Of a DNA stretch of 32,000 bases, positions 4,117-28,581 are shown one piece after another (within the stretch, counting starts at the first letter, position 1; each line of letters begins with the position of its first letter). The notes below the pieces were generated by a model, which was given only the letters and a program-made list of their open reading frames with translations, did not search any database and was not told the DNA's origin. The stretch is from NCBI RefSeq assembly GCF_000219355.1, contig NC_015722.1, positions 960,001 through 992,000 of the forward strand, given 5' to 3'. The DNA is from Candidatus Midichloria mitochondrii IricVA. GTDB lineage: Bacteria > Pseudomonadota > Alphaproteobacteria > Rickettsiales > Midichloriaceae. The position numbers and the translations under genes are program-made.

Positions 4117-4335
4117 GCCCCTCACAGCTGAGTAAAAGCCTGAGTATGTTTATTAGTACATTACTAGCGATTTTAATAGAAAAGTGAAGCTTATGTTAGG
4201 GACTTAATTAAAGGTTAATATTGCTCGTAAATAATGGGTAATATTAGTATCAATAATATGGGATAGCGGTTGCGGTGCGAAGCTTATTGTATATATTGAA
4301 CTTACGTTGAATCAAATTTTTAAGGAGGCGCTCAC

Positions 4336-5096
4336 ATGTTGGGGTTTTTGTTGTATTTTATCTCGAGAGAGACATGTAACTAAGTAGCTAAGGCTAGTTA
4401 TCATTCTAAAACTGCTCAAGAATCAGCAACCACTGCAGCTTATGAGACGTTTTGTGCTGCAAAGGATACTGCAAGAGTGGCTTCTGCGCTTCCATTAGCC
4501 TATTGTACTTATAAGGAGTTTTTGTGGAACGGTGATTGGAAATCTTCCTATTATAAGTGCTGCATCTACAATAGCTAAATATACTGTTTCACCTATCGCG
4601 TCAACTGTTATATCGGGAGTAGCAAGCGTGCTAGGATGTGCAGCTAAAGGCCTTGTATTTTTATCCGGTTTCTGCTTTTGCTCTGGTTACAGGACTTACT
4701 TTCTGTAAAACCGGAGATATACAGCGCTTACAGCCCGTAATTGAGAAAACTGGGTCTGCATTGTACCATACAGGCAATGCGGGCAAGAAGCAGGAACTTC
4801 TGCTTATCATGGGGCTAAAGCGATTGGAGGAGCCGTTAGTGATCTTTTATCAGGAAAGGAAACTTGGCTACGGAAATGGCACGTGAATTAAAACTCGCCG
4901 AGCATGAGAAAGATGTGGCTTATGCATATGACATGCCAAGTACAGACTTCGTTATGTGAGTGACAATCCTTATGAGGGGATAAGCTCTCTTTTTGGCGAA
5001 GAATCACATTTGTGTTAGCAATAACGGAGTAGATTACTTTATGCAGCTGGTATTGGTGCTATTGGTGCCAATTAGCCGGCCGCATAAAAAAAGAGT
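4336..5096 (+). pseudogene. decayed gene of unknown function (Ala/Gly/Ser/Thr-rich, hydrophobic segments)
   Basis: Strong SD 'AAGGAGG' (4322-4328) lies 7 nt before the ATG at 4336. There is an in-frame TAA at codon 16 (4381-4383), then 64 open codons. Reading then continues only by switching frames (for example 'ISAASTIAKYTVSPIASTVISGVASVLGCAAKGLVFLSG', then the 4638-4886 ORF, then 'AAGIGAIGAN'). No recognisable family. The 3' end is approximate. Confidence 0.35.
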
Positions 5097-5987: not shown

Positions 5988-6132
5988 AAATCCTTAGCGG
6001 GACACAAAAGACTTACTGTTGCAAGGCTGGTTTGCTTTTTTAACATGTCCTACCTTGCAAAGATTAAAGTACTTTAGCCATAATACTACGAGCGATAGGC
6101 TCTCAAATAGAATGCGGTACAAGAGGTTAAAC

Positions 6133-6930
6133 CTATACCATTAAATTATAAAGGATAGGGTTAGCGCCAATCATCCCGCTTCCCTCTTCTATCGTATGAT
6201 TACTTTTAAAATCTGAAACAACTCCACCTGCTTCTCTGATTAATAGAATACCTGCCGCAATATCCCAAAGTTTAATTACACCATGAACACAAAAATCAAA
6301 CCTACCACTCGCAATATATGCCATGTCTAAAGCGGCAGATCCAGTGATGCGAAATCTGGCCTTCTGCTCTTTCAAAAGCAAATGAATTCTTTCCTCCTCA
6401 GTAGAATAACTCCCTAAAACACTACTTATGGTACCAACCGATTCTGATAGTTTTTCCCTGCTAGAGACTTTTATTTTTCTCTCTGCATAAAGGTCATCTA
6501 TATAATAAGCTCCTTTGCCCTTTTCACTCCAGTAAATATCTCTTGTAATTGGACAATAGACAATCCCGGCAATAATTTCTTTTTCTGTATTGGTCCTTTC
6601 AAGCGCAATTGAGACGCAAAAATGCGGATTACCACGCATAAAATTTGACGTTCCATCAATAGCATCAACTATCCACCGATAATTAAATTCAGGGTCATTT
6701 ATAATTTCTCCCCGCTCTTCTAACAAGAAGTTGCTATCAGGAAAAAAATGAGACAACTCTCTAATGATAATTTTCTCTGCCTTTACATCAGCGTTGGTTA
6801 CAAATCCTCCTAAATCCTTTTTAGAGACCTGCAACTTCTCTAACTCATAAAAATCCCTGGTAATGGCATTACTTACCTTATCACAAGTTTTTATTAAAAA
6901 ATTTATTAGGTTAGATCTCTTGCTATGCAT
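6133..6930 (-). CDS. suhB: inositol monophosphatase family protein (SuhB-like)
   Basis: 265 aa. IMPase motifs 'LLEERGE', 'WIVDAIDGTSNF' and 'LWDIAAGILLIREAGG'. Confidence 0.85.
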   Translation of the reverse strand: MHSKRSNLINFLIKTCDKVSNAITRDFYELEKLQVSKKDLGGFVTNADVKAEKIIIRELSHFFPDSNFLLEERGEIINDPEFNYRWIVDAIDGTSNFMRGNPHFCVSIALERTNTEKEIIAGIVYCPITRDIYWSEKGKGAYYIDDLYAERKIKVSSREKLSESVGTISSVLGSYSTEEERIHLLLKEQKARFRITGSAALDMAYIASGRFDFCVHGVIKLWDIAAGILLIREAGGVVSDFKSNHTIEEGSGMIGANPILYNLMV

Positions 6931-6967
6931 ATTAGGTCAAAACCTGAGGAATTAGTGAAATATCAAA

Positions 6968-7009
6968 CAAAAAGGGCGCCAAAAAGTATAAACTTTTCAA
7001 CGCCTTTTT
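6968..7009 (-). terminator. rho-independent terminator-like hairpin downstream of the 7026-7235 gene
   Basis: On the minus strand: AAAAAGGCGTTGAAAAGT-TTAT-ACTTTTTGGCGCCCTTTTT. This is a long stem (GC base plus A/T and G:U pairs) followed by a T-run, 17 nt after the stop codon. Confidence 0.5.
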
Positions 7010-7025
7010 GAAACAATTTCCAAGC

Positions 7026-7235
7026 TTATAAAACTTGATAAGGAACCGGTCTTCCAGCCGCATCACGCACTAAATCACCGTTATCAAATTTAGCTGCTAC
7101 ATAATTGCCATGCCCAATTTTTCCGCCCTTATACATTACAGGTTTCACTTCTTTTCCGTCTACCTTTTTTAAAGTTGCGGAAGCACCACGATTCGCAATA
7201 TTATTCTTTGATGTTTTTGTACCCTTTGCTGCCAT
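7026..7235 (-). CDS. small basic hypothetical protein (about 69 aa)
   Basis: ORF 7026-7274. The likely start is the internal ATG at 7235 ('MAAKGTKTSKNNIANRG...'). It is Lys/Gly-rich and has its own terminator-like hairpin. No family recognised. Confidence 0.45.
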   Translation of the reverse strand: MAAKGTKTSKNNIANRGASATLKKVDGKEVKPVMYKGGKIGHGNYVAAKFDNGDLVRDAAGRPVPYQVL

Positions 7236-7345
7236 ACACTTGAACCCAATCAATCTTTGTGTTAAAAATTCCATAGTGCGATTATGGACATTTTACACAA
7301 TTAGTCAAGTGGTATTGACTTTCTATATAGTGGTTAACAATACTT

Positions 7346-7933
7346 ATGCTCTTCAACCAAGCAACTTTTTTAACTAGCGCAGCTAATTTGCGCAATTTAC
7401 CAAAAACTCAGCTACCAGAAATTGCCTTTATAGGCAGATCGAATGTTGGTAAATCAAGCCTCATCAATGCAATTGTTGGCAATGCAAAAATTGCAAAAAC
7501 TTCAAAAACTCCCGGCAGGACTCAACAAATTAATTTTTTTAAGCTCCCAGAATTTATTATAGTGGATCTACCTGGCTATGGTTATGCTTCAGCTCCAATA
7601 AAAGTGATACAAAAGTGGCAAGAATTTAACTTAGAGTACATAAAAAACCGTCAACAATTAAAACTGGTTTTTATCTTGATAGACAGTAGAATTGGGTTTA
7701 AAGAATTAGATTTAAACCTCATCGAACAACTAAATGAAGCTGGAGTTAAATGTAGAATTATCTACACTAAAGTTGACCAACTAAATAAAAGCGAAATAGA
7801 AATTTTAAAATCAATAACCACTTTTAACGATAGATACCCTCTCCTAGAGCCGAACGCTTTGATCGCGAGTAGTAAGAATAAGGAAGGTATAGAAAGAATA
7901 CGTAAGGTGATTTTGCATTATATAATTTCTTGA
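7346..7933 (+). CDS. engB: ribosome biogenesis GTP-binding protein YihA/YsxC
   Basis: 195 aa. G1 'GRSNVGKSSLINA', 'TPGRTQ', G3 'DLPGYGYA', G4 'TKVD'. The N-terminus is collinear with EngB. Confidence 0.9.
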   Translation: MLFNQATFLTSAANLRNLPKTQLPEIAFIGRSNVGKSSLINAIVGNAKIAKTSKTPGRTQQINFFKLPEFIIVDLPGYGYASAPIKVIQKWQEFNLEYIKNRQQLKLVFILIDSRIGFKELDLNLIEQLNEAGVKCRIIYTKVDQLNKSEIEILKSITTFNDRYPLLEPNALIASSKNKEGIERIRKVILHYIIS

Positions 7934-7988
7934 AATGAATTGCTTTTGTTTTATTATATATAGAAAACTTAGATAGCGTTTTTGCATC

Positions 7989-9293
7989 ATGTTAAAGGAT
8001 AGTGACAGAATTTTTTCTAATCTTTATGGACAAGATAGTGCTGATTTAAAATCTTCAAAGGAGCGCGGTGATTGGGATGAAACAATAAAATTTTTAAAAT
8101 TAGGCCCCGATGTAGTTATTGAGGAAATTAAGAAATCTGGTTTAAGAGGCAGAGGCGGGGCCGGATTCTTAACTGGAGCAAAGTGGTCTTTTATGCCTAA
8201 AAATCCAACTGAAGAAAATCCCTCTTATTTAGTCGTTAATGCAGATGAGGGTGAACCTGGAACCTGCAAAGATAGAGATATTATAAGACACGAACCTCAT
8301 AAAATTATCGAAGGATGCCTCATAGCAGGTCATGCAATCCGAGCAGAAGCCTCTTATATTTACATACGCGGTGAATTTTATAACGAAGCAATTGCTCTAC
8401 AAAAAGCAATTGATGAAGCATATGAAGCCGGATTAATTGGAAAAAATGCTTGTGGCAGCGGCAAGAATTTCGATATCTACCTACATAGAGGGGCCGGAGC
8501 TTACATTTGCGGAGAAGAAACTGCTCTTCTTAATAGCTTAGAAGGCAGGAAAGGCATGCCACGACTTAAACCTCCGGCTTTCCCAGCAGCAGTTGGTTTA
8601 TTCGGGCATCCAACAACTGTAAATAATGTCGAAACTATCGCAGTGGTTCCAGCCATTATGAGGCGTACTGCTGATTGGTTTCTCTCTCTAGGTAAACCCA
8701 ATAATAGTGGCACAAAGGTTTTTTGTATATCTGGCCATGTAAATAAGCCTTGCAACGTTGAAGCAGAAATGTCCATCCCTCTTAAGGAATTAATCGAAAA
8801 ATATGCAGGCGGAGTAAGAGGGGGTTGGGATAACCTTTTAGCCATTATTCCAGGCGGCTCATCAGTGCCAATGCTACCTAAAAAAATATGTGATGATGTT
8901 TTAATGGATTTTGATAGCCTAAGAGCGGTACAGTCAGGACTTGGAACTGCCGGGGTAATCGTTATGGATAAATCAACAGATTTGATTGAAGCAATAGCAC
9001 GATTGTCAAAATTTTATATGCATGAATCTTGTGGCCAGTGCACACCTTGTAGAGAAGGCACAGGTTGGATCTATAGAATTATGTCAAGACTGGTTAAAGG
9101 TAACGCTCATTCGGAAGAAATAGATAAACTTTTTGAAATTACTAAACAAATAGAGGGTCATACTATTTGCGCTCTTGGAGAGGCTGCTGCATGGCCCGTA
9201 CAAGGTTTAATTAGACATTTCAGAAACGAAATAGAAAATCGTATTAAAATATTCCACAACAATAGACTCTCAAAAGGAAGAAGGGCTGCATAA
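7989..9293 (+). CDS. nuoF: NADH-quinone oxidoreductase subunit F
   Basis: 434 aa. '[10 protein letters not shown]', '[14 protein letters not shown]', '[14 protein letters not shown]' and the 4Fe-4S motif '[12 protein letters not shown]'. Confidence 0.97.
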
Positions 9294-9300
9294 ATAACTC

Positions 9301-11151
9301 ATGACGAAAAAAGCTAAATCCTCTAAAAGAGTTTGTATACGGAGAAAAGCCTCTAGAAAAGGTATTTTCTTTCGATTAAAAAGAGTTTGGCAAAACAAAA
9401 TTTTTAGGCTTTTTATAAAAAGCTCAATAGCAGGATTAATAATAGCCGCCTTTCTTATTTCCATTTTCATAATTTACTGTGCAATCGATCTTCCAGACAT
9501 TGAAAAATTATCAGAAGACAATTCTAGGCCTCATATAATAATCAGAGCAGGAACAGAAGAAATATTAGCTCATTATGGAGATATTTATTGTAGATCTTTG
9601 ACCTATGGGCAATTACCTAAAACTCTCATCGATGCTGTTTTAGCCACAGAAGATAGAAGATTTTTTGATCATGCTGGAATAGATTATTTTGGCATAATTA
9701 GAGCAGCATATAAAAATAAAATTGCTGGAAGGGTGGTCCAAGGTGGCAGCACCATTACACAACAGCTAGCAAAAATTATTTTCCTATCAGCAGAACGCAC
9801 AATCAAACGTAAGGTACAAGAGGCATTACTTGCAATTCAATTGGAAAGATTATTTTCCAAAGAGCAAATTCTCGTTATGTACTTAAACCGCGTTTTTTTA
9901 GGGCATGCCAATTACGGCGTTGATGCGGCTGCTAGAAATTATTTTGGTAAACGTACTGAAAACTTAACGCTCTATGAATCAGCGTTTATAGCCGGAATGC
10001 TTAAAGCTCCTTCTCGGTATGCGCCCCCTGGAGGCGCAGAAGTGGCATTGAATCGAGCTAAGCAAGTGCTGTCAAACATGGTAGCAGCTGGGTTTATTTC
10101 TAAAAGACAAATGGAGAACGCTGCCATACCCAATTTTATTAATAACGCACGGCCAAGCGGATTATTAGTTAATCAGTTCTTTACTGATTATATACTATCA
10201 GAATTACCTAAACTAATCCCCAATATCAAACAGGATCTAGATATACATACAACCTTTTCGTTAGAAATACAGCATAACCTTGAAAAGGCTATCACAAAAA
10301 CTTTAGAAAAAGACAATATATCTAAAAAGATACAGGTCGCCGCTATAGTAATGAATAAGAATGGGGGGATAAAAGCAATGATGGGAGGAAGGTCCTACGT
10401 ACACTCGCAATTTAATAGAGCGGTTGCTGCAAAGCGTCAACCTGGCTCAATTTTTAAATTATTTGTATACTTAGCAGCTTTAGAAAATGGTTACAGCGCT
10501 GATAGCTATATTGAAGATGAAGAGGTGAAAATTGGTAAGTGGACCCCGAGGAATTTCTCAAGGAAATATATGGGTACTGTCTCCTTAATTGATGCCTTTG
10601 CCTACTCATTAAATACTGTCGCTATCAAACTCAGTGAATCTGTAGGTCGAGAAAAAGTGATTTCTATGGCAGAAAAGCTCGGCATTGAAGACAGTTTGAA
10701 GAACTTACCAAGCCTTGCTCTGGGGACAAGCGAAGTTACTTTATTAGATCTAGTCTCTTGCTATGCAGTCATAGCTAATGATGGAATGCTGGTTAATGAT
10801 TCAAGTATACTTAATATATCAAATTCTAATAAAAAAACTATCTATCGTCTCAAGAGAGGCGGGATATTTGATAATAGCAGAGTTTTAGAAGAGAACGTAG
10901 TATCTCAAATAAAAGATATGCTAGCAGCGTCAGTGATGTATGGTACCAGCAAAAATGCTGCTGTCCCTGAACATAAAGTTTACGGTAAGACCGGAACAAG
11001 TCAGGATCACCGCGATGCATGGTTTATTGGAATTGTAGATGACTTAGTTCTTGGTATCTGGGTTGGCAACGACGATAATACTCCTATGAACCGTGTTACT
11101 GGCGGCACCTTGCCCGCTAATATATTTAAAGAATTTATGAAAATGAGGTGA
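9301..11151 (+). CDS. mrcA: class A penicillin-binding protein (transglycosylase/transpeptidase, PBP1A-like, short form)
   Basis: 616 aa. N-terminal TM anchor; GT51 motifs 'EDRRFFDHAGID' and 'GGSTITQQLAK'; transpeptidase motifs 'GSIFK' (SxxK), 'SLN' and 'KTGTS'. Confidence 0.9.
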   Translation: MTKKAKSSKRVCIRRKASRKGIFFRLKRVWQNKIFRLFIKSSIAGLIIAAFLISIFIIYCAIDLPDIEKLSEDNSRPHIIIRAGTEEILAHYGDIYCRSLTYGQLPKTLIDAVLATEDRRFFDHAGIDYFGIIRAAYKNKIAGRVVQGGSTITQQLAKIIFLSAERTIKRKVQEALLAIQLERLFSKEQILVMYLNRVFLGHANYGVDAAARNYFGKRTENLTLYESAFIAGMLKAPSRYAPPGGAEVALNRAKQVLSNMVAAGFISKRQMENAAIPNFINNARPSGLLVNQFFTDYILSELPKLIPNIKQDLDIHTTFSLEIQHNLEKAITKTLEKDNISKKIQVAAIVMNKNGGIKAMMGGRSYVHSQFNRAVAAKRQPGSIFKLFVYLAALENGYSADSYIEDEEVKIGKWTPRNFSRKYMGTVSLIDAFAYSLNTVAIKLSESVGREKVISMAEKLGIEDSLKNLPSLALGTSEVTLLDLVSCYAVIANDGMLVNDSSILNISNSNKKTIYRLKRGGIFDNSRVLEENVVSQIKDMLAASVMYGTSKNAAVPEHKVYGKTGTSQDHRDAWFIGIVDDLVLGIWVGNDDNTPMNRVTGGTLPANIFKEFMKMR

Positions 11152-11260
11152 TCTACCTACTCAATGCTATATAGAATCAACAGCGGAGAAGAGTAACGGA
11201 GTGCCTTTTATCTCAATACTGCTATAATCCGGTATAGAAATTGATTCTGGGATATGAAAC

Positions 11261-11589: not shown

Positions 11590-12460
11590 CCATGAGATAA
11601 TATTGGGTTGAAGACATAAGCCAAGAGCCCTGAGAAAGAGGTCTGTCAAGAAATTGTTTGGCGAGCGATGCCGTGGCGCTGGATTTGGCAAATCTCTTTC
11701 AATTCTCCGATGGCTGTTTCAATCAATCCACGCCCTGCAAGAAGCAGTTGTTTAAAAGCCGCAAGCGGGTTTTGTTTTTCTTAAGCCGTGTGATGAGCTC
11801 AATACCTTGATTGCTCAGTGTTTTTGCTTATATACCACCGATCTCCGAATAGAAGGCCTGTCAAATATTGAGTCAGTTTCTCGACAACGGCTCGATCATC
11901 TGTATTACCCGAAGTCAGTGTGAATGACATAATCTCTCCTTGATCATTGAGGCCAAAGAACCATCCGGGTCGACGTTTTCCCACGCTGAGCGACGCCTTT
12001 AAGGACCTTATTACGGCTAATACGTAAGTTATGACAAAACCTTCCAGCTTTTTGTTGAGTCAACGTACCTGTTTGTTTCCCTTTGCAGCAATTCAGCAGA
12101 ATGACCAACGGGATGACCGCGTCTCGCATCAGCTCAACAAAGCGATTGTAGCTGATAAGCTTCGGCAATCCCTCTCTGAGAGAGATTTGAAAACAGTTTA
12201 GGTAAAAATCTTTGAATCCGGTAATGCCCTCAAATGAAACAAAACGAGGATCGTTATAACTTCGGAAAGCATCATCCCAGACTCTCGTTCCCTTTGTCTC
12301 TGCGAGTTTCTTGAGGATCTTTGGTACGTGAGTTGTCGCTTGCAAAAATCATCAATCAAACAAAATATTTCTACTAGAGGAACCACTTTCCTTATTTATC
12401 GTGAAATTGAGAAGAACTTAATGGTTACACAGCTTCTTTGAAGCCATATCAGATAATTTC
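11590..12460 (-). mobile_element. IS982-family insertion sequence remnant (transposase pseudogene)
   Basis: Minus-strand fragments carry typical IS982 transposase signatures: 'EIFCLIDDFCK...MLSEVITILVLFH' (12198-12386), 'LPKLISYNRFVELM' (11944-12345), 'GWFFGLNDQGEIMSFTLTSGNTDDR...LFGDRWYISK' (11799-11984) and 'RHRSPNNFLTDLF' (11458-11691). The fragments are split over three frames. The ends are approximate and no clean IRs were resolved. Confidence 0.7.
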
Positions 12461-13779
12461 TTTAAAACTTACCTAAAACTGGGGTTACTTAGGATAGCCC
12501 ACCAGCACACTATCGCCAAGATTCAAAGTATAACCTTCATAACCTACTATAACTGCAGCTGAACCCTCGATAACGATCAGGTATTCACTTCTATTGTGAT
12601 GAAGTTGCAAAGATGTTCTTTAAAAAGGGGCTATTTTTAATTTTTTGATAGCAAAATTTTTTTCCTCTCTTAATTTCGTAAAATGCTCCCCCAAGGTTTA
12701 TTATTTGAAACCTCATATTTAAGGTTATAATACATGTTTTGTGTATTAGTCCGCTAGATTTATCAGCCATTAATATCGCTTCATCAGTATTTACAACTAT
12801 TACGTCATTTAATCCAATAACTGCAATGGGTTTTTGATCCGAGACAACGTAACTATTTTGTGTATCCATCAAGAGGGTGTTACCACTGCTAAAATTGCCG
12901 TATTTATCTTTTTCCGCGACTTCCCCCCCAAGCTGAATATAAACAACCTATGTCATACCATTTAACATTTGCAACAGACGTAAAGATATTATCTGATCTT
13001 TCAATAATTGCAGTGTCTATAGATATCCTTTTTTGCTCAGCTCATTTGGTAAAATATAAGTCCTATTACTAATTTCAGTAGATTTATTTAGGCTTCTTGG
13101 GATTTACTATATATTTGAGGGCATAAATTTTTCATTTCTTGTAAAAAATTAGCCACTCCAGATAAAAATATACCGCTGTTCCAGTAACAAAATTTATTTC
13201 ACCAAATCGTCAATTTTCTCTTCAGTAGGCTTCTCCACAAATCTACTCGCTTTTTGTATACTTTCAAAGTTAGCATCTTTCCCAACCTGAATATAACCAT
13301 ATCTAGTTTCTTTTCTTTGAGGATGAAGGCCAAAGATTGTAATTCTGTTGTGACTTTTGGCAGCTAGAAAGTAAATTTTATTAAACAGTTCTTGCGCATA
13401 TTCTAAATAATGATCTACTGGCATAATTAATATCACTCCTAATTCAGTGCATCACTTTTTTATTTATTAACAACGGTGGCTAAAGCAGCCGCAAATGCGC
13501 TACCATTGGCTTGCGATTCCATTATGATATGCCCTACTTCTATATTAAATTGTTTAATTTTTTCTTCAACATACGATATAAAGCATTCCTGTACTATAAT
13601 GATAGGGAGGTTAAAATACTGTGCCTCCTTTAACCTAATTAGCGTACTCTGTAGTAAAGTATAACTCATCCCAGGTAGAGATGAATTGTCTTGGTTTCGA
13701 TGGGATTAGACAAAGGCCAAAGTCTACTACCTTCGCCTCCGCACAAAATTATAGGAGTGATAGAAAAATTCTTAAGCAT
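12461..13779 (-). pseudogene. manC: mannose-1-phosphate guanylyltransferase / mannose-6-phosphate isomerase (ManC/CpsB-like), multiply disrupted
   Basis: The ATG at 13779 gives 'MLKNFSITPIILCGGEGSRLWPLS' (nucleotidyltransferase G-loop). Further pieces follow in different frames with stops between them: 'LLQSTLIRL...IIMESQANGSAFA' (13460-13669), 'IMPVDHYL...TIFGLHPQRKETRYGYIQ...FVEKP' (13194-13436), 'AVIGLNDVIVVNTDEAILMADK' (12591-12872) and the cupin 'HHNRSEYLIVIEGSAAV'. Confidence 0.75.
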
Positions 13780-13969: not shown

Positions 13970-16312
13970 TTAAATCTTTCTTAAAAATTCATCAATCAGC
14001 TTATTCGCAATAGACATCGCCGTTGCATTCATTTGTCCAAACTGATTCATATCTACTATGCTCACCAGTTGGTCTGTTCCGTTCGATCCACTGTCTGCGA
14101 GTGCTTTGCTCTCAACAGTTCCCGCATAAGCTCCTGACAAACGAATTGATGGAGCTCCAGTATCACCAGTTTCTGCGTATGCACCATTTTCTCTTTGGAA
14201 ATATTGAGGGGCCTGAAAAACTGCAACAGGTATCGCATACAACATTCTGTCTTTAGCTCCATTTTTAAATTTCATATACAAATTACCTTTATCAATATAC
14301 CAGCTATCATATTCTCCAAGAGGCGAGCCATCTGTTTGGTAGGTCAAAAGGTTTTTTTGTCCTTTTAACTCCTTACTAGTTTTACCATTAATATTTATTT
14401 GAGCATGAGTTGGTGCAACTTGGGTATTATTAATCGCCCAATCAACAATCAAGTCTGAACCAAAAAGAGGAATATTAGTATTTTGGGTGCTTATTACTCC
14501 AGGATTCTCATGAAGGCCAATTGTGCTAAGTAAGCTAGGATCTCCCGTAACTGGTATTGGATTACCCGCAGCTTTTGGCTTTAATACTAAAGCAAAGCCA
14601 TTACGGCTAGGAGCTAAAGCCGCAATACAAGAGCAGTTAGCCTCCCCATTAATTGCATTCATTAATCCAATTAATGAATTAAATTCTCCAGCGTTGGCGG
14701 GAGCCGCAACATAAGTAAATGTTTGCCCCCCTATTTGAACTGCAGTGTTCGTAGTAGCCCCTAAGTCGGCACTAGGATCACTAAAATAATTTTTGGTGAT
14801 GAGATTAGCAGTTACTGGAGTACTATTTAAGTATTGACCATCTGGAGTAAAATTTAAGATACCTGCCTGCAATAAGCCATCGTCTCTATACAACTTTGAT
14901 GTTGCGTCTATCTCTCCTTTAGCAGAAACTTCCACAACCCACGCAGTAGTAGAAATTTTCTTAAAAGAAAAATTCACATCTTTTTTACCACCCTTAGAAT
15001 CAAAAAAAGAAACTCTTTCTTGATAATCAGCTCGAACTTGACCTCCAGCCATATTGTGATTTGAATCTAAATAGGAATATATCGGTTCTAAGTTACCTTG
15101 ATTGAACTTTGGTACTCCAAGAGCACCTAATATATCAATCACAGGATCTTGGTTTCTTATCTCGATCATTTCATCAACTGTACTATATAAAAACATTTTA
15201 TCTTTTGCACTTGCGGCACCTATAAAACTAGCATTAAATGAGTTTCTACTGAGAATATTTTGTAGTTGTTCTATAGTTGCAAATCTCTTTTGAGTCGCAT
15301 CTACTGACGTGATGATATTACCTGTATCAAGATTAAAATTAGCCTTGCCTCCAAATACATTTTCTAAATCTGCTGATAATGCTATAGTAATTTTACTACC
15401 ATTATCTTGCGAATAAATAAAAAGGGAAGCAGTAGTGTCATTTTTTAAAACTTTAGCTCCCAGAACTTGGCCATAGTTCTGGTTTATTCCTGTTGCTAAA
15501 ATATCTAAGGCAGCAGTATTGTCAGTGTTGGCTGGAATATCAACTTTCAATTCCCTATTCTGAACCGGCTGTGAGCCATTTTTTATCGAAAAGGTCATAG
15601 CGACTTTACTAGTATCTATAGCAGCCGCTGTGTTGCCAGGTATTTGTATGCTCCTTGTCTCAACGAAGCCACCATATTGTAAAACAAATTGTTCAGTTGT
15701 TGGAGGAGCCGACTCTAACGTAGATTTTGTAGTCCTATTTATTATTACGCCCTTATCTCTGAGAAGAGTCACCCCCGGCGATTGCACCTCTCCTAGTAAA
15801 ATTCCAGAATCCCCAGTCGCTACCGTATCAGCGTTCAGTTTAAAAGCCAAATCTATTTTGTTAGTAGCTTCGGCTTCAGAAATAGTATCTTTGTCTATTT
15901 TAATCTGCACTAGTTTAGCAGTTGACAAAACTCCACTGTCATCATAAGCATAACCCTTCAGGTACTTTCCACTGTCCTCAAGATCTCCATTTTTATTCAC
16001 TTCAAATGAGCTAGTCTTTACATAAAGGTTATTCTCTGAGCCATCTTCAGTAGTAACGACTAACATGCCATCACCCATAATTGTAATATCCCCCTCGTTA
16101 GCAGTACCAGTGAAGGTTAGTGGACTATTTACGTCTATAAAAGTTTTTGTTTCAACCCCACTTGATTTACCTGCAACAGAAGTTTCTTGCCAACTTATAC
16201 TATCAGCAAATCGTCCTGGTGTGTGATCATTTGCTAAGTTTTTGGCTAGAGTATCCATGCTTTGACTTGATTTTCTGAAGGCTTCAGATGATACGGCACC
16301 TAATATAGTCAT
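13970..16312 (-). CDS. flgE: flagellar hook protein FlgE-like (long, divergent, about 780 aa)
   Basis: N-terminus 'MTILGAVSSEAFRKSSQSMDTLAKNLANDHTPGRF' fits the rod/hook N-terminal pattern (..NIAN..T.G(Y/F)K). 'GDITIMGDGMLVV' fits DxxIxGxGFF, and 'LYVKTSSFEVNKNGDLEDSGKYLKGY' fits YTRxGxFxxDxxGxL. The C-terminus 'YAIPVAVFQAPQYFQRENGAYAETGDTGAP...GTVESKALADSGSNGTDQLVSIVDMNQFGQMNATAMSIANKLIDEFL' fits the FlgE C-terminal domain. The start is moved to the ATG at 16312, where homology begins; the upstream ATG at 16363 lies inside the predicted promoter. Confidence 0.8.
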   Translation of the reverse strand: MTILGAVSSEAFRKSSQSMDTLAKNLANDHTPGRFADSISWQETSVAGKSSGVETKTFIDVNSPLTFTGTANEGDITIMGDGMLVVTTEDGSENNLYVKTSSFEVNKNGDLEDSGKYLKGYAYDDSGVLSTAKLVQIKIDKDTISEAEATNKIDLAFKLNADTVATGDSGILLGEVQSPGVTLLRDKGVIINRTTKSTLESAPPTTEQFVLQYGGFVETRSIQIPGNTAAAIDTSKVAMTFSIKNGSQPVQNRELKVDIPANTDNTAALDILATGINQNYGQVLGAKVLKNDTTASLFIYSQDNGSKITIALSADLENVFGGKANFNLDTGNIITSVDATQKRFATIEQLQNILSRNSFNASFIGAASAKDKMFLYSTVDEMIEIRNQDPVIDILGALGVPKFNQGNLEPIYSYLDSNHNMAGGQVRADYQERVSFFDSKGGKKDVNFSFKKISTTAWVVEVSAKGEIDATSKLYRDDGLLQAGILNFTPDGQYLNSTPVTANLITKNYFSDPSADLGATTNTAVQIGGQTFTYVAAPANAGEFNSLIGLMNAINGEANCSCIAALAPSRNGFALVLKPKAAGNPIPVTGDPSLLSTIGLHENPGVISTQNTNIPLFGSDLIVDWAINNTQVAPTHAQININGKTSKELKGQKNLLTYQTDGSPLGEYDSWYIDKGNLYMKFKNGAKDRMLYAIPVAVFQAPQYFQRENGAYAETGDTGAPSIRLSGAYAGTVESKALADSGSNGTDQLVSIVDMNQFGQMNATAMSIANKLIDEFLRKI

Positions 16313-16351
16313 TTTTAAAATAATACAAAAGTTAATAACAAAATTATATAC

Positions 16352-16367
16352 AGCAAGAACCATGCCA
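16352..16367 (-). promoter_or_regulatory. candidate sigma-54 (-24/-12) promoter for the flgE-like gene
   Basis: The minus strand reads TGGCAT-GGTTC-TTGCT, against the consensus TGGCAC-N5-TTGCA. The -12 element ends 39 nt before the ATG at 16312. It is the only such match I found in the window, and by rough base-composition odds well under one is expected by chance. Confidence 0.45.
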
Positions 16368-16473
16368 ACTTTTTTTGAAAAAACATTTAATTGAACAATA
16401 TATTACTATTAATAAATTAAATATTATGGTTTATTAATGAATAAAAAATTAATAAAATTGGACGTAGGGGGAG

Positions 16474-17610
16474 ATGTTTAATTTTTTAGAGAAAGGAGTG
16501 TTTTTTTTAGATAAAAATGAGCAATTTGATTTTATAACATTTAGATTTTTTGATATTTTTGGGGCCTACCAAGACGTTACTTATTCCGCGCACTATTTTA
16601 GTGATGATTTCCTACAAAACAATGCAGTAATTGCCTCCTCTAGTAGCTTAACAGACTGCGTCAGTAACAAAAAAATTTATCTAAAGCCTAATTTAAACAC
16701 CTTTTTTCCTGATCTTTTAAGTAACGCAATTATTATTCACTGCAATATAGTAGTTAAATCACATGAAGGAGTTAATCTTTATGACAACCTAAATCATGAT
16801 CCACGATATCTTGCAAGTCGAACTGACAGTTACTTATTGAACTCTATGAAAATTGATCAAATAGCTTTTTTGATTGAACTGGAATTTTATGCCGATATAG
16901 AGGATGATCTAGAAGATGAGTTTTACAATAATTTAAAAAGTAGCTTTGAAAAATCTAATGTAGAATTAGTTTCATACCGGAAGTTGGAAGAGCCTAACAA
17001 ACGATTGGTAGGCACCTTCTCTCTTGGTATACTTAATACTGCTGATACAATTGAAAAAGTGAAATATCTATTGAAGAAGATTGGAGTTCATTATCAGGTC
17101 GTAGTGTCCTTCGAAAGCGATAAAAAACACCCAGCTAGAATTATTGTTAACCATGTCATATATCAAAACAACAGATCTATTTTTCATCTAAACAACTTTT
17201 TCACCCCTACAGAAGAGGTAACTAGGTATATTGGAGGAATTTTTTATAATTATGATCAAATAATAGATTTATCAAAAAAATTAAGACAGACTTCGGAAAA
17301 TTTAAGAAAAATTAAATTTTATTATGCAGAAGCCCTCCCTAGCTTAAAAGACCATTGTAAGGTAATGGTTAACGATCTTTATATATCAATTGATTTGCCG
17401 GCTCAGGGTGTAAATAGTTATATCTTGTTAGCAAGCTTAATAATATATGGTATTGATGGAATTTACGAAAAGATTGAGTGCAACGAATTAGATATGGGAC
17501 AAGGTATTTTAGACCAAAGCCTTGATTTTTCAAGCCCTTCTCTTACCTCTTTTAATCTTATTCATAATGTCATGGGGGAGGAAATTGTTGACCTTTATAA
17601 AAAGGTGTAA
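16474..17610 (+). CDS. glutamine synthetase-like protein, shortened and catalytically degenerate (candidate pseudoenzyme)
   Basis: 378-aa intact ORF. It matches GlnA landmarks collinearly (E. coli sequence as I recall it). 'FDFITFRFFDIFGAYQDVTYSAHYF' matches '[25 protein letters not shown]'. 'IIIHCNIV' matches 'LIIRCDIL', and 'HDPRYLASRTDSYL' matches 'RDPRSIAKRAEDYL'. 'IELEFYA' matches 'PEPEFFLF', and 'RYIGGI' matches 'YYIGGV'. 'ENLRKIKFYYAEA' matches 'NSYKRLVPGYEAP'. 'NSYILLASLIIYGIDGIYEKIE' matches '[22 protein letters not shown]'. Confidence 0.6.
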   Translation: MFNFLEKGVFFLDKNEQFDFITFRFFDIFGAYQDVTYSAHYFSDDFLQNNAVIASSSSLTDCVSNKKIYLKPNLNTFFPDLLSNAIIIHCNIVVKSHEGVNLYDNLNHDPRYLASRTDSYLLNSMKIDQIAFLIELEFYADIEDDLEDEFYNNLKSSFEKSNVELVSYRKLEEPNKRLVGTFSLGILNTADTIEKVKYLLKKIGVHYQVVVSFESDKKHPARIIVNHVIYQNNRSIFHLNNFFTPTEEVTRYIGGIFYNYDQIIDLSKKLRQTSENLRKIKFYYAEALPSLKDHCKVMVNDLYISIDLPAQGVNSYILLASLIIYGIDGIYEKIECNELDMGQGILDQSLDFSSPSLTSFNLIHNVMGEEIVDLYKKV

Positions 17611-25606: not shown

Positions 25607-28581
25607 TTACTTTTCAAATTTCTGACCGAGCACTAATAGACATGGAGTGAAAAATAAAGTTAAAATAGTGGCAAAACTTAAACCGCCTGCAATGGAAGCA
25701 GCCGACCGGCGCCAACGTTGACTTGAAGGAGCATTATAAGTTATCTCTCTTTCAAAAAAGAGTGAGTCCTGCAATCATCGGAATAAGGCCTAATATCGCA
25801 GTGAGTGCAGTAAGTAGAATAGGCCTCATTCTCTGGGCGCCGGTCCTAACTACTGCTTCTTCTACAGAAATTCCGCTGGGCTCTTAAGTGCTGGTAAGTA
25901 TCAACGGACAGGATGTTATTGTTAAGCACAACTCCTGCTAATGCAATAATCCCTATACTGCACACCACTATACCAAATGGTTGCCAAGAAAGAATGAGAC
26001 CTATCAAAACACCAACTGCTGATAGGAATACCGCACTCATAACTATATTGTTGATCTTTATCGTCTCCGCCATAGGTCACATTAATACCTATCATCAAGA
26101 TTTTGTTCGAGCCACTTCTTGATCTCTTTTACTTTAGTATCTGCAAGTACTCCTGGCTTAACATCTGATTTTACTGTAATAGTAATGTCTTGATTTAATC
26201 TTTTGATTTTATTGACTTGAGGTTCTGCTACTCGGTTGACAAATTGACTAATAGGGACTTTCTTGCCATCAGTTGTGACAATAATATCTAGTTCTGAAAT
26301 TAATCTTTTGGTTGCCGGATAACGTAGCAGTATATCTACTTCGTCGTTAGAGTCGTCCGCACACGGTAGGTTGATAGCTTTAGCCCACTTGTAATCAACT
26401 TCACCATATTACCAACCATTCCAACATCGACTCGATACCTTGCAACAAGCTCTCGATCAAATTTTAAACCCCATTCAATAGCAGGAATTGGTCTTGAATC
26501 TTTCCAACATCCTTGAATCCAACCATTTCAGTCATAGCGTTTCTGAAACGTTCAACAAAGGGAGGAAGCAAGTCGTAGTTATATGAAGAGAAATTTATTT
26601 CAATTGGTTTCTGTGAGGGTGGGCCTTTCCTTTCTTCCAGTATTTGAAAGCTTATTTCCTTGATGTGCTCCAATCTTTCAGTTATATCAGCAAAAATTTC
26701 TACGGCTTTTCTTCTTGTTTGCCAATCTTCAAGCTCAAGTTGAACTATAGCGATGGTATCTTCAGGAAACATTCCTTTGTCATCAACTAGACAGCTTTTA
26801 GCGTAGAAGACTTTTATATCTTTCTTTAGATCAAGAATTTTAGCTTCAACGTCTTGGAGCAACTTGCCTTTTTGCGAGAGTGAGAGGTTACCAGGTGATC
26901 CTATTGAAATTGTTGCTGAAGTTGGTTCTACTTGTGGGAAAAATTCTACTCCGGTTCCTGCGATAAAAAAGAAAATATACACGCTTACTAGAAAATCACA
27001 TATGCTCGAGATAAAGAGTTTTGGCCTCTGCAAGACAATTGTTAATAATTTAATTTAACGTATTTTGCGCTTTAAACCTCTCAAGTCAGCAAGATCACCT
27101 TCCTTCGGCTGCGCGCATGCTTTAACTGCTTCTTCATCTTCAGTTTTAGAATGTCCTAAAATTGGGCCTAGGGCTGGCTGAAAGTAGAGAGCGAATATCA
27201 AAGAATTGCTTAAAATAGCGATTACTGTAATTGGCATAAATTTCACGAACTGACCAATAACTCCTGGCCAGAATAGAAGGGGCATAAATACAACAATTTT
27301 TACGAGTGTTGAAGTCACTATACATTCTAGTTGCTGCTTCCAGAAAAGGCTATTTGCAGTTCATGGCCATCGGCCATTTTTCTATCCGCATATTCACTTA
27401 CAACTATTGCATCATCAACTATCATGCCAACGGTTAGTATGAGGCTAAACAATACAACTATGTTGAGGGTGAGGCTAATAAAATTCCAACTAAGAATGAA
27501 GCAGGAAGTGACAAAGTAACTAATAAGGCCCCGCGAACCTACCCCGCTGATAAAACGATGACTATCATAACCAAAATTCCAGCTAAGATGATGCTATTTT
27601 CTAAATCTGCAATCATTTCGTTGATTTGATCAGACTGATCTTGAGAATACATAATTTCAATAGATGCCGGCAAAAATTTTGAATTTTCTTTGATCATTTC
27701 CTTAACTGCAGCCACTAAATGATATTTGCTTCACTTCTTTTAGAGATCTCTAACACCACTGCTGATTTACCGTTTACTCTTGCAATAGTTTGCGCATCTT
27801 TAAAAGTTTTTTCACTGTTGCAATATTTTCAAGCCTTAGTATTCCACTCTTGCTCGCTTTAATTGGAAAGGAGAGAAATTCGTTTATGTTTTTAACCAGG
27901 CTTGGTATTTTTATTGCATACTCTCCCCCTTCTGTTTTTAAAGTTCCAGCAGGAACTAACGCATTGTTAGAAGCAATGATCTGTGCAATTAAATCAATCG
28001 CAACTCCATATCTCTCAAGTGTTGCCGGCTCAATGATAACTTCGATTGCATTTTTTTCTCCCCTATATTAACTTCTAAAACACCTTTGACTCCTTCTATC
28101 TTGTCTTTTAAGTCTCTTGCTAAGGTAACTAAACTCCTTTCATCGACATCTCCTGTAACCATTACGTTTAATACTGGCTCTAAACTTAGGTTTATTTAAT
28201 TCACAGTCGGGGTATCACAGCATCTTTTGGCAGAGTTTGGTTAAAAGTAGTATCGCCAACTTTATCTCCTACACCTCTTAAAGCTCTATCACTATCAAAC
28301 CCTGCATTGAATTCAAGTATTACATTAGCACTGCCCTCTTGGACGTAAGAGGTCATCTTTGTGATACAAACAACAGATCTTAAGGCGTTTTCCATAGGCC
28401 GCAGTAGCAATCTTTGCCCATCTTCTGGAGAAATGCCCACATATTGCATTAAAACATATATCATCGGTATTGCTTCCTTTAGGTATTTGAGTGTACGCTA
28501 AATAGCCCAATAACACACGATGAATAGGAATAAGATAGTTGCTCTCCTGCGATCTACAAACGCGTTAACTAACTTCCCCAT
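25607..28581 (-). pseudogene. RND efflux transporter (AcrB/AcrD/AcrF family), heavily fragmented
   Basis: The ATG at 28581 gives 'MGKLVNAFVDRRRATILFLF..', which hits a stop after 27 codons. Fragments in all three minus frames include 'GISPEDGQRLLLRPMENALRSV...NVILEFNAGFDSDRAL' (28201-28464) and the porter-domain piece at 26464-27033. TM pieces lie at 27055-27318 and 25846-26073, with a C-terminal 'ATILTLFFTPCLLVL'. About 870 bp (27331-28200) has no minus-strand ORF of 61 codons or more. Confidence 0.85.

Follow-up and report, generated by a model that had tools for sequence, protein, structure and literature searches.

A probably inactive descendant of type I glutamine synthetase is kept under purifying selection in Midichloria

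Type I glutamine synthetase (GSI), as represented by GlnA of E. coli and Salmonella (PDB 7w85, 2gls, 1f1h), is built of an N-terminal beta-grasp domain, which docks onto the neighbouring subunit, followed by a catalytic barrel, and its C-terminal helix latches two hexameric rings together. In the structural literature on glutamine synthetase (GS), E129, E131, E212, E220, H269 and E357 are assigned as metal ligands, and D50', Y179, R321, the E327 flap, R339, R344 and R359 as the residues for substrate, ATP and ammonium. Some GS-I paralogues do not make glutamine, as described for GlnA2, GlnA3 and GlnA4 of Streptomyces, PuuA of E. coli and NpaA1 of Pseudomonas (PMC5403932, PMC6529630, PMC8998196, PMC11335346). 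Lengsin of the vertebrate lens is a GS-I relic that, according to a passage in PMC2667176 (citing Wyatt 2006 and Grassi 2006), is catalytically inactive; it keeps the functionally important GSI regions, with changes mainly in the N-terminal part (PMC2667176). Here we describe a GS-like gene of Candidatus Midichloria mitochondrii IricVA, located in a stretch of 32,000 nucleotides (contig NC_015722.1, positions 960,001 to 992,000; hereafter the window). Judged from its residues, it probably encodes a catalytically dead descendant of GSI, a bacterial 'pseudo-GS', that is maintained as a functional protein. No paper was found in the literature on the GS-like gene of Midichloria or on a GS pseudoenzyme in Rickettsiales.

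The open reading frame (ORF) begins with an ATG at 16474 and its stop codon ends at 17610. Its product is identical to the deposited protein (P0001) and falls 91 aa short of the 469 aa of E. coli GlnA, in agreement with the difference of about 90 aa from GSI that an earlier note on this DNA had given. In identical form it was found on 16 M. mitochondrii contigs, ten of which are assemblies of >1 Mb, and the three M. mitochondrii assemblies sampled show 0 nt differences within it. That note had also remarked that the frame stays open against the expected frequency of stops, and this holds with the local base composition, which predicts one stop per 12.4 codons and a probability of 1.5e-14 for 378 open codons. 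The parts of the gene, in coordinates of the window, are:

16474..17610, + strand: GS-derived gene of 378 aa plus stop, with 'glutamine synthetase type I' as its deposited name (AEI89310.1)
16474..16788, + strand: N-terminal beta-grasp domain, aa 1-105 (Pfam Gln-synt_N at aa 18-93; phmmer against PDB GSI at aa 15-140)
16852..16893, + strand: strand KIDQIAFLIELEFYA, aa 127-140, bearing the only two surviving metal ligands, E135 and E137
16894..16905, + strand: junction of the main deletion, where E. coli GlnA ~137-185 has no counterpart
17131..17157, + strand: PARIIVNHV, aa 220-228, in place of GSGMHCHMS
17380..17403, + strand: YISIDLPA, aa 303-310, in place of RIEVRFPD
17413..17463, + strand: NSYILLASLIIYGIDGI helix, aa 314-330, aligned with its GS counterpart and the sole stretch matching Pfam Gln-synt_C

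By BLASTP the protein gives one single collinear alignment with E. coli GlnA (residues 17-338 against 14-391; E 8e-13, 21% identity), which bears out the earlier claim of a GlnA homologue with its parts in the correct order from N- to C-terminus, and phmmer searches of the PDB recover GSI chains at about 1e-9. The scores are nevertheless far under every curated cut-off. In detail, TIGR00653 (GlnA) gives E 4.6e-13 with 48.7 bits against a cut-off of 429.15, PRK09469 41.7 bits against 845, Pfam Gln-synt_N E 1.4e-6 over aa 18-93 with 28.3 against a gathering score of 33.4, and Pfam Gln-synt_C a 27-residue piece only (aa 312-338; E 1.4e-3, 18.2 against a gathering score of 24). A hidden Markov model (HMM) of canonical GSI only scores the Midichloria family with 64-72 bits and E. 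coli GlnA with 824; hmmalign to this HMM gave no alignment of the family's C-domain and hence no residue mapping, a failure which shows the degree of divergence. Homology of this domain to GS is supported by a bridging protein, P0004, which matches the family at 3e-22 and Pfam Gln-synt_C at 1e-50.

With 45 GS homologues in the alignment, AlphaFold2 gave a model with a mean predicted local distance difference test score (pLDDT) of 81.5 and a predicted template modelling score (pTM) of 0.87. In a Foldseek search with this model all of the 50 top PDB matches were GSI, the best being E. coli GlnA 7w85_A (7e-24, TM-score 0.70). The HMM search and structural comparison that the earlier note had proposed have returned significant GSI matches in sequence and in structure, rather than no match. 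Collinear similarity together with the predicted two-domain fold, taken from a model that leans on canonical GS in the alignment, places the protein in the GS superfamily, and we conclude that it is homologous to GSI along its whole length. The N-terminal beta-grasp is the portion most like canonical GS (the equivalent of S53 is S57), and the GlnA motifs DPR, ExEF, xADxxxxxKY, YIGG and N-x-Y...G-x-DGI are retained; N314, Y316, G326 and G329 are invariant or nearly so across the 45 GS homologues. The nearest relatives of the protein are GS of the alphaproteobacterial type.

Catalytic residues are numbered as in E. coli/Salmonella and were mapped by L-INS-i on 47 sequences, and this mapping agrees with BLASTP, phmmer and two MAFFT alignments. 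Only two of the six metal ligands are kept and four are gone, so that the alternative named in the earlier note, a divergent GlnA with all its ligands retained, is not what the alignment shows. The equivalents in the Midichloria protein, with those of the family or of the sister lineage described below, are:

E129 and E131: E135 (invariant) and E137 (Asp in the sister lineage)
E212: K170 or L171 according to the alignment used; S in the sister lineage
E220: L178; S in the sister lineage
H269: I224; V in the sister lineage
E357: S305; S in the sister lineage
H271: N226
G265: P220
R359: D307; D or S across the family
R321: N276; N or K across the family
R339: A287; A, D or E across the family
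R344: K292
D50: A54; A or V across the family
Y179, E327 and Y397: within deleted segments

In all six family members D50, Y179, E212, E220, H269, R321, E327, R339, E357 and R359 are substituted or deleted. Conservation of these positions reaches 92% among the 36 comparison GS aligned with them, and that of the metal ligands is 75-86%. The replacement of RIEVRFPD by YISIDLPA, as read in the earlier note, is an exact alignment. For GSGMHCHMS the note had found the right region but not the right register: its 'IIVNHVIYQ' is offset by three residues from the aligned PARIIVNHV, within which all family members share the block P-A-R-I-x-x-N-H.

A main deletion of ~48 aa, together with smaller ones that remove the Glu327 flap, the adenylylation loop and the C-terminal helix, accounts for the roughly 90 missing residues. 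The larger gap (E. coli ~137-185) includes the Tyr179 ammonium-site loop and the central-channel loop and sits between the E129/E131 (ExE) strand and the helix preceding the HHHE strand; in the model, strand 127-140 runs directly into helix 144-160 with pLDDT >90. The earlier note had placed this deletion between HHE and GSGMHxH, a segment which is in fact present (ADTIEKVKYLLKKIG aligns with ADEIQIYKYVVHNVA), but it had correctly noted that the context of the adenylylation-loop Tyr is absent, as that loop is deleted. Neither the dodecamer-building elements (the C-terminal helical thong and the central loop) nor the adenylylation residue Tyr397 has a counterpart in the alignment. Of what characterizes a functional GlnA, namely scores above the curated HMM thresholds, six metal ligands, the residues for substrate, ATP and ammonium, and the dodecamer elements, no item is present as such, and residues essential for the ancestral reaction have been lost, as is expected of a pseudoenzyme.

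The pattern of conservation within the family points in the same direction. Among the alignable former catalytic positions 5 of 16 (31%) are invariant, against 175 of 362 (48%) elsewhere, and several former ligand positions differ between Midichloria and the sister lineage, suggesting that the old active site is no longer specially constrained. The best-conserved blocks, aa 181-200 (70% invariant) and aa 221-260 (65% invariant), are barrel strands and helices.

Within the genus, the GS-like gene is under purifying selection as strong as that on topA, uvrB and nuoF. The ratio of non-synonymous to synonymous substitution rates (dN/dS, omega) is 0.058-0.082 against a 95%-identical metagenome-assembled genome (MAG; contig L002) and 0.05-0.11 against the Midichloria strain of Ixodes holocyclus (L007), where the range is also given as 0.069-0.106. 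In the same two comparisons topA gives 0.072-0.078 and 0.07-0.08, and uvrB 0.11-0.15 and 0.07-0.08; nuoF gives 0.066-0.072 against L002, and the neighbouring flgE-like gene, which is fragmented in L007, 0.125 against L002. Between the GS-like genes of the window and L002, 65 synonymous differences (Sd) stand against 19 non-synonymous ones (Nd), with a binomial p=8e-30 against neutrality.

The I. holocyclus strain, with a complete genome of 934 kb, carries an intact 381-aa orthologue at 85% identity. Placed basally, as the sister of all other Midichloria, this strain does not live inside mitochondria, and its genome is the smallest; the isolation of its host lineage is put at ~99 million years (bioRxiv 10.1101/2022.05.16.490919). 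A further intact orthologue, of 380 aa and 50% identity, is found on two near-identical metagenomic contigs (L001 and L011), where it lies between radC and a gene judged by eye to be VirB4-like. The PccB protein encoded there is 90% identical to that of Midichloria and ~73% to those of other Midichloriaceae, which is why we regard these contigs as a sister lineage of the genus. None of the orthologues, which at 95-98%, 85% and 50% identity agree in length, contains an in-frame stop or a frameshift, and the young pseudogene considered in the earlier note, with stops in the orthologues, was thus not encountered. Purifying selection is seen across lineages, omega being 0.05-0.11 inside the genus and 0.22 against the sister lineage, and the gene has been kept since the last common ancestor of Midichloria and beyond. 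The earlier note had argued for selection on a non-canonical function; the dN/dS values, which it had proposed to determine against orthologues, bear out the selection at 0.05-0.11 within the genus, and the loss of ligands supports the reading as a pseudoenzyme.

A 254-aa 'hypothetical protein' of a Midichloria MAG (P0068) was considered as a disrupted orthologue and rejected, as its frame is open from codon 31 to the stop. In its contig (L006; GCA_030068825.1, JALDTI010000019.1) the first 146 nt, unrelated to any of the loci compared, replace the flgE-like gene and the first 30 codons, and this contig-end junction (L006:1-146) stems from an assembly break at a repeat or else from a real rearrangement truncating the gene in that strain.

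Beyond these orthologues the family is small. Scans of genomes and metagenomes for further members yielded only the I. holocyclus strain and the duplicate sister-lineage contig, and an exhaustive HMMER search with the family profile against 1.84 billion representative proteins returned 65 matches only. PADLOC (defence systems) gave no match and PHROGs (phage families) one insignificant match (0.005). The nearest relatives in the HMMER search, P0004 (L008:143-1498), P0005 (L009:8001-9341 and L010:5976-7316), P0006 and P0015, are GS homologues of 396-451 aa which, like the Midichloria family, each lack four of the six metal ligands but, unlike it, are full length and strongly match Pfam Gln-synt_C (1e-50 to 1e-78). 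The contigs of P0004 and P0005 (L008-L010) have 31-39% GC and housekeeping neighbours. P0004 and the family share derived motifs in the C-domain (SAGLYIGHSIYLDNRTIF against PARIIVNHVIYQNNRSIF, VEFRYASE against IKFYYAEA), and in a crude neighbour-joining tree P0004 stands beside the family's long branch, a position in which long-branch attraction is possible. Going by their sequences, the four proteins may be intermediates or parallel cases of GS erosion, which hints at a stepwise or repeated process in intracellular bacteria.

By analogy, lengsin is the closest functional counterpart, in that the Midichloria protein would likewise be a class I GS descendant that is inactive yet conserved and has a non-enzymatic role. 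The Midichloria protein arose independently of lengsin. Lengsin is eukaryotic and dodecameric, whereas the Midichloria protein is bacterial, keeps the N-domain best, and has lost most ligand residues as well as the loops and the helix that build the dodecamer. The gamma-glutamyl-amine ligases are active, ATP-dependent enzymes of normal length in which the ligands of metal and ATP are still in place and the amine pocket is altered. The Midichloria protein is shortened and lacks this combination; because the metal and phosphate ligands are lost, it is not filed with these ligases.

Taken by itself, the statement that the gene is selected and inactive as a GS is very probably correct, and the protein would then form neither glutamine nor a gamma-glutamyl product by the GS mechanism. 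Since the beta-grasp and the barrel core are best kept and the ligand positions are not privileged, the protein most likely works by binding rather than by catalysis; a binding or scaffold mechanism specifically is put forward as a tentative proposal. The protein would form a GS-type assembly, possibly a single ring with the ring stacking lost, and this assembly may act as a scaffold, regulator or sensor via contacts with other proteins or small molecules. Precedents for this are canonical GS, which regulates partner proteins, and lengsin as a non-enzymatic GS-I relic.

There are however several observations that weigh against this interpretation. The confident structural model, itself a prediction, depends on the canonical GS sequences in its alignment: with the three sequences of the family only, pLDDT collapses to 36.6, so that the fold is derived through homology and not from an independent prediction. 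The inactivity is read solely from the residues, and the lower conservation of the former catalytic positions, compared with the rest of the protein, lacks statistical significance (p=0.21). Constraint has also not been uniformly strong, as across the split to the sister lineage omega is 0.22 for the GS-like gene against 0.04 for pccB, at a dS of ~1.6 for both; a phase of accelerated change along the deep branch would fit this, as would a looser constraint in the sister lineage. Finally, the acidic ligands E135 and E137 persist, the acidic E172/E173 lie in the turn beside the E212 position, and the polar residues R222, N226, H227, K279, K281 and D301 are new and invariant in the family.

Residues of this kind (E135, E137, the six new polar ones and S305) would be the means by which a GS barrel could have been re-tooled for another chemistry or ligand. 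Such a remodelled enzyme would fit the invariance of E135, the retention of E137 as Glu or Asp and the strong purifying selection, and GS-like paralogues with new substrates are well known (GlnA2/3/4, NpaA1; PMC5403932, PMC6529630, PMC8998196, PMC11335346). Four metal ligands as well as the glutamate- and phosphate-binding arginines R321, R339 and R359 are lost, however, R344 has become Lys, and the E327 flap and the Tyr179 loop are deleted. In the GS-like enzymes described as acting on new substrates, the machinery for metal and ATP is, to our knowledge, preserved. That the blocks at aa 181-200 and aa 221-260 are the most conserved of the family (70% and 65% invariant) also speaks for remodelling, but conservation of barrel strands is equally expected from folding alone. 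Most former pocket positions vary between Midichloria and the sister lineage (E212 L/S, E220 L/S, R359 D/S, R339 A/D/E), which is unlike a working site, and we consider this explanation improbable.

An ordinary but fast-evolving glnA that still makes glutamine, its divergence being due to the AT-biased evolution of an endosymbiont, would agree with the deposited name and with the lack of a second Midichloria glnA among the top 120 matches of a profile search, which were generic alphaproteobacterial GS only; Rickettsiales moreover generally retain glnA (PMC5615194, PMC6863919). The housekeeping neighbours in the same genome are nevertheless easily recognised by Pfam, whereas the GS-like protein reaches 49 bits with TIGR00653 against a cut-off of 429. 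As ~90 residues of functional loops are deleted and Leu, Ile, Ser, Asp or Ala have taken the place of ligands with 83-92% conservation among the 36 comparison GS, this possibility appears highly improbable. Still harder to credit, and refuted as far as sequences can tell, is a young pseudogene or a chance-open remnant like the decaying genes nearby. The local degradation, with insertion sequence (IS), manC and AcrB fragments, and the MAG in which only the 254-aa P0068 is called would suit it, but the chance of the open frame (1.5e-14), the dN/dS of 0.05-0.11 (p=8e-30) and the intact gene at 85% and 50% identity would not, and the short P0068 has no in-frame stop but a junction, at a contig end or from a rearrangement, to 146 nt of foreign sequence.

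Upstream of the GS-like gene, in the spacer of 110 nt that separates it from the divergent flgE-like gene, a block of unusual conservation is found, with the following features:

16396..16460, + strand: 65-nt upstream block, also at L002 ~4320-4384 and L007 7923-7987
16408-16416, 16430-16438 and 16448-16456, + strand: 9-nt half-sites ATTAATAAA, TTTATTAAT and ATTAATAAA, inside the 65-nt block
16375..16404, + strand: sigma-70-like promoter candidate (TTGAAA, 18 nt, TATATT; 10/12 consensus matches)

The block is 100% identical in M. mitochondrii, the 95%-identical MAG and the I. holocyclus strain, at a coding dS of 0.7-1.0, and is the longest exact match in the 8.3-kb segment syntenic with the latter; portions of it persist in the sister lineage. 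In contrast, the 13 nt nearest the start codon, including the Shine-Dalgarno region, are variable. Of two control spacers, the divergent uvrB|topA one shows 91% identity and the convergent GS|uvrB one 26%. The promoter candidate, the -10 hexamer of which falls inside the block, matches by consensus alone, and over the whole region matches of this kind show no enrichment. A comparison with Rfam for riboswitches and known RNAs gave no family match beyond chance, and the RNA fold z-score of -1.3 indicates no significant structure. By its sequence the block is probably a promoter-proximal operator or a 5' leader, and its invariance suggests that expression of the gene is controlled.

The flgE-like gene (13970-16363, - strand, 797 aa) lies head-to-head with the GS-like gene, as stated in the earlier note. 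Its matches to Pfam FlgE D1 and D2 are weak; in M. mitochondrii and the 95%-identical MAG it is unbroken and under constraint (omega 0.125). In the I. holocyclus strain (L007 ~6105-7891) it is broken across several frames and residues ~388-557 are missing; the GS-like gene was therefore kept where its neighbour was lost. A functional link between the two genes, as hinted at in the earlier note, was rejected, because the flgE-like gene is fragmented in that strain and the sister-lineage gene has other neighbours in its place. That several neighbours are decaying, which the note had also seen, is evident from a DDE transposase in three short ORFs (~11800-12390), a manC-like gene (mannose-1-phosphate guanylyltransferase) in NTP_transferase and cupin fragments (~12485-13670), the same fragments being present in the 95%-identical MAG, and an ORF of 189 aa (26464-27033, - strand) which matches only positions 535-655 of the 1021-position AcrB/AcrD/AcrF profile and is probably the remnant of a resistance-nodulation-division (RND) efflux pump gene.

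The gene order of the region has changed as well. A block of suhB, a GTPase gene, nuoF and a penicillin-binding protein (PBP) gene directly follows topA at L002:10401-15496 and L007:14081-17143; in the window it lies upstream (6061-11166), parted from the flgE-like gene by the IS and manC remnants, which suggests that the M. mitochondrii lineage alone underwent a rearrangement, its breakpoint lying immediately behind topA (~22350). In L004 (7411-9785; Logan SRR16203938) two gene calls of 101 and 670 aa stand in the place of the single 791-aa topA, owing either to a frameshift or to an assembly error.

With regard to a canonical glnA of Midichloria, P0072 (on a contig of 1,191,988 bp) was taken up as a candidate and rejected because of its GC content of 51.5% and a gene content unlike that of Midichloria. 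A GS entry was not found in the supplements of the paper on the M. mitochondrii metabolic model. Midichloria sp. IholoSidney (CP094379.1) carries a GlmS-type glutamine amidotransferase gene with GATase and SIS domains (L012:9519-11285), suggesting that the symbiont uses glutamine although its GS homologue looks inactive.

The label 'glutamine synthetase' on this gene is misleading. If it is taken at face value, metabolic models of this widespread tick symbiont gain a step of glutamine synthesis and ammonium assimilation that the protein almost certainly cannot perform, and should no other GS homologue exist, the host must supply the symbiont with glutamine. As useless genes are soon lost from reduced genomes, a dead enzyme that has stayed, amid decaying neighbours, under a constraint of housekeeping level from before the radiation of Midichloria suggests a function that matters to the symbiont. 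A wider and doubtful reading would be that a stepwise, possibly repeated conversion of GS into a non-catalytic protein took place in AT-rich intracellular alphaproteobacteria, with the Midichloria family as the trimmed end-point: a scaffold, or a regulator or sensor (e.g. of host-derived glutamine or glutamate), under a tightly conserved operator and as the only GS homologue of the genome. Were this true, Midichloria would be without ammonium assimilation and reconstructions crediting it with glutamine synthesis would be wrong. The protein would be a bacterial counterpart to lengsin, and the apparent full-length intermediates would provide a natural series in which the conversion of an enzyme may be studied.

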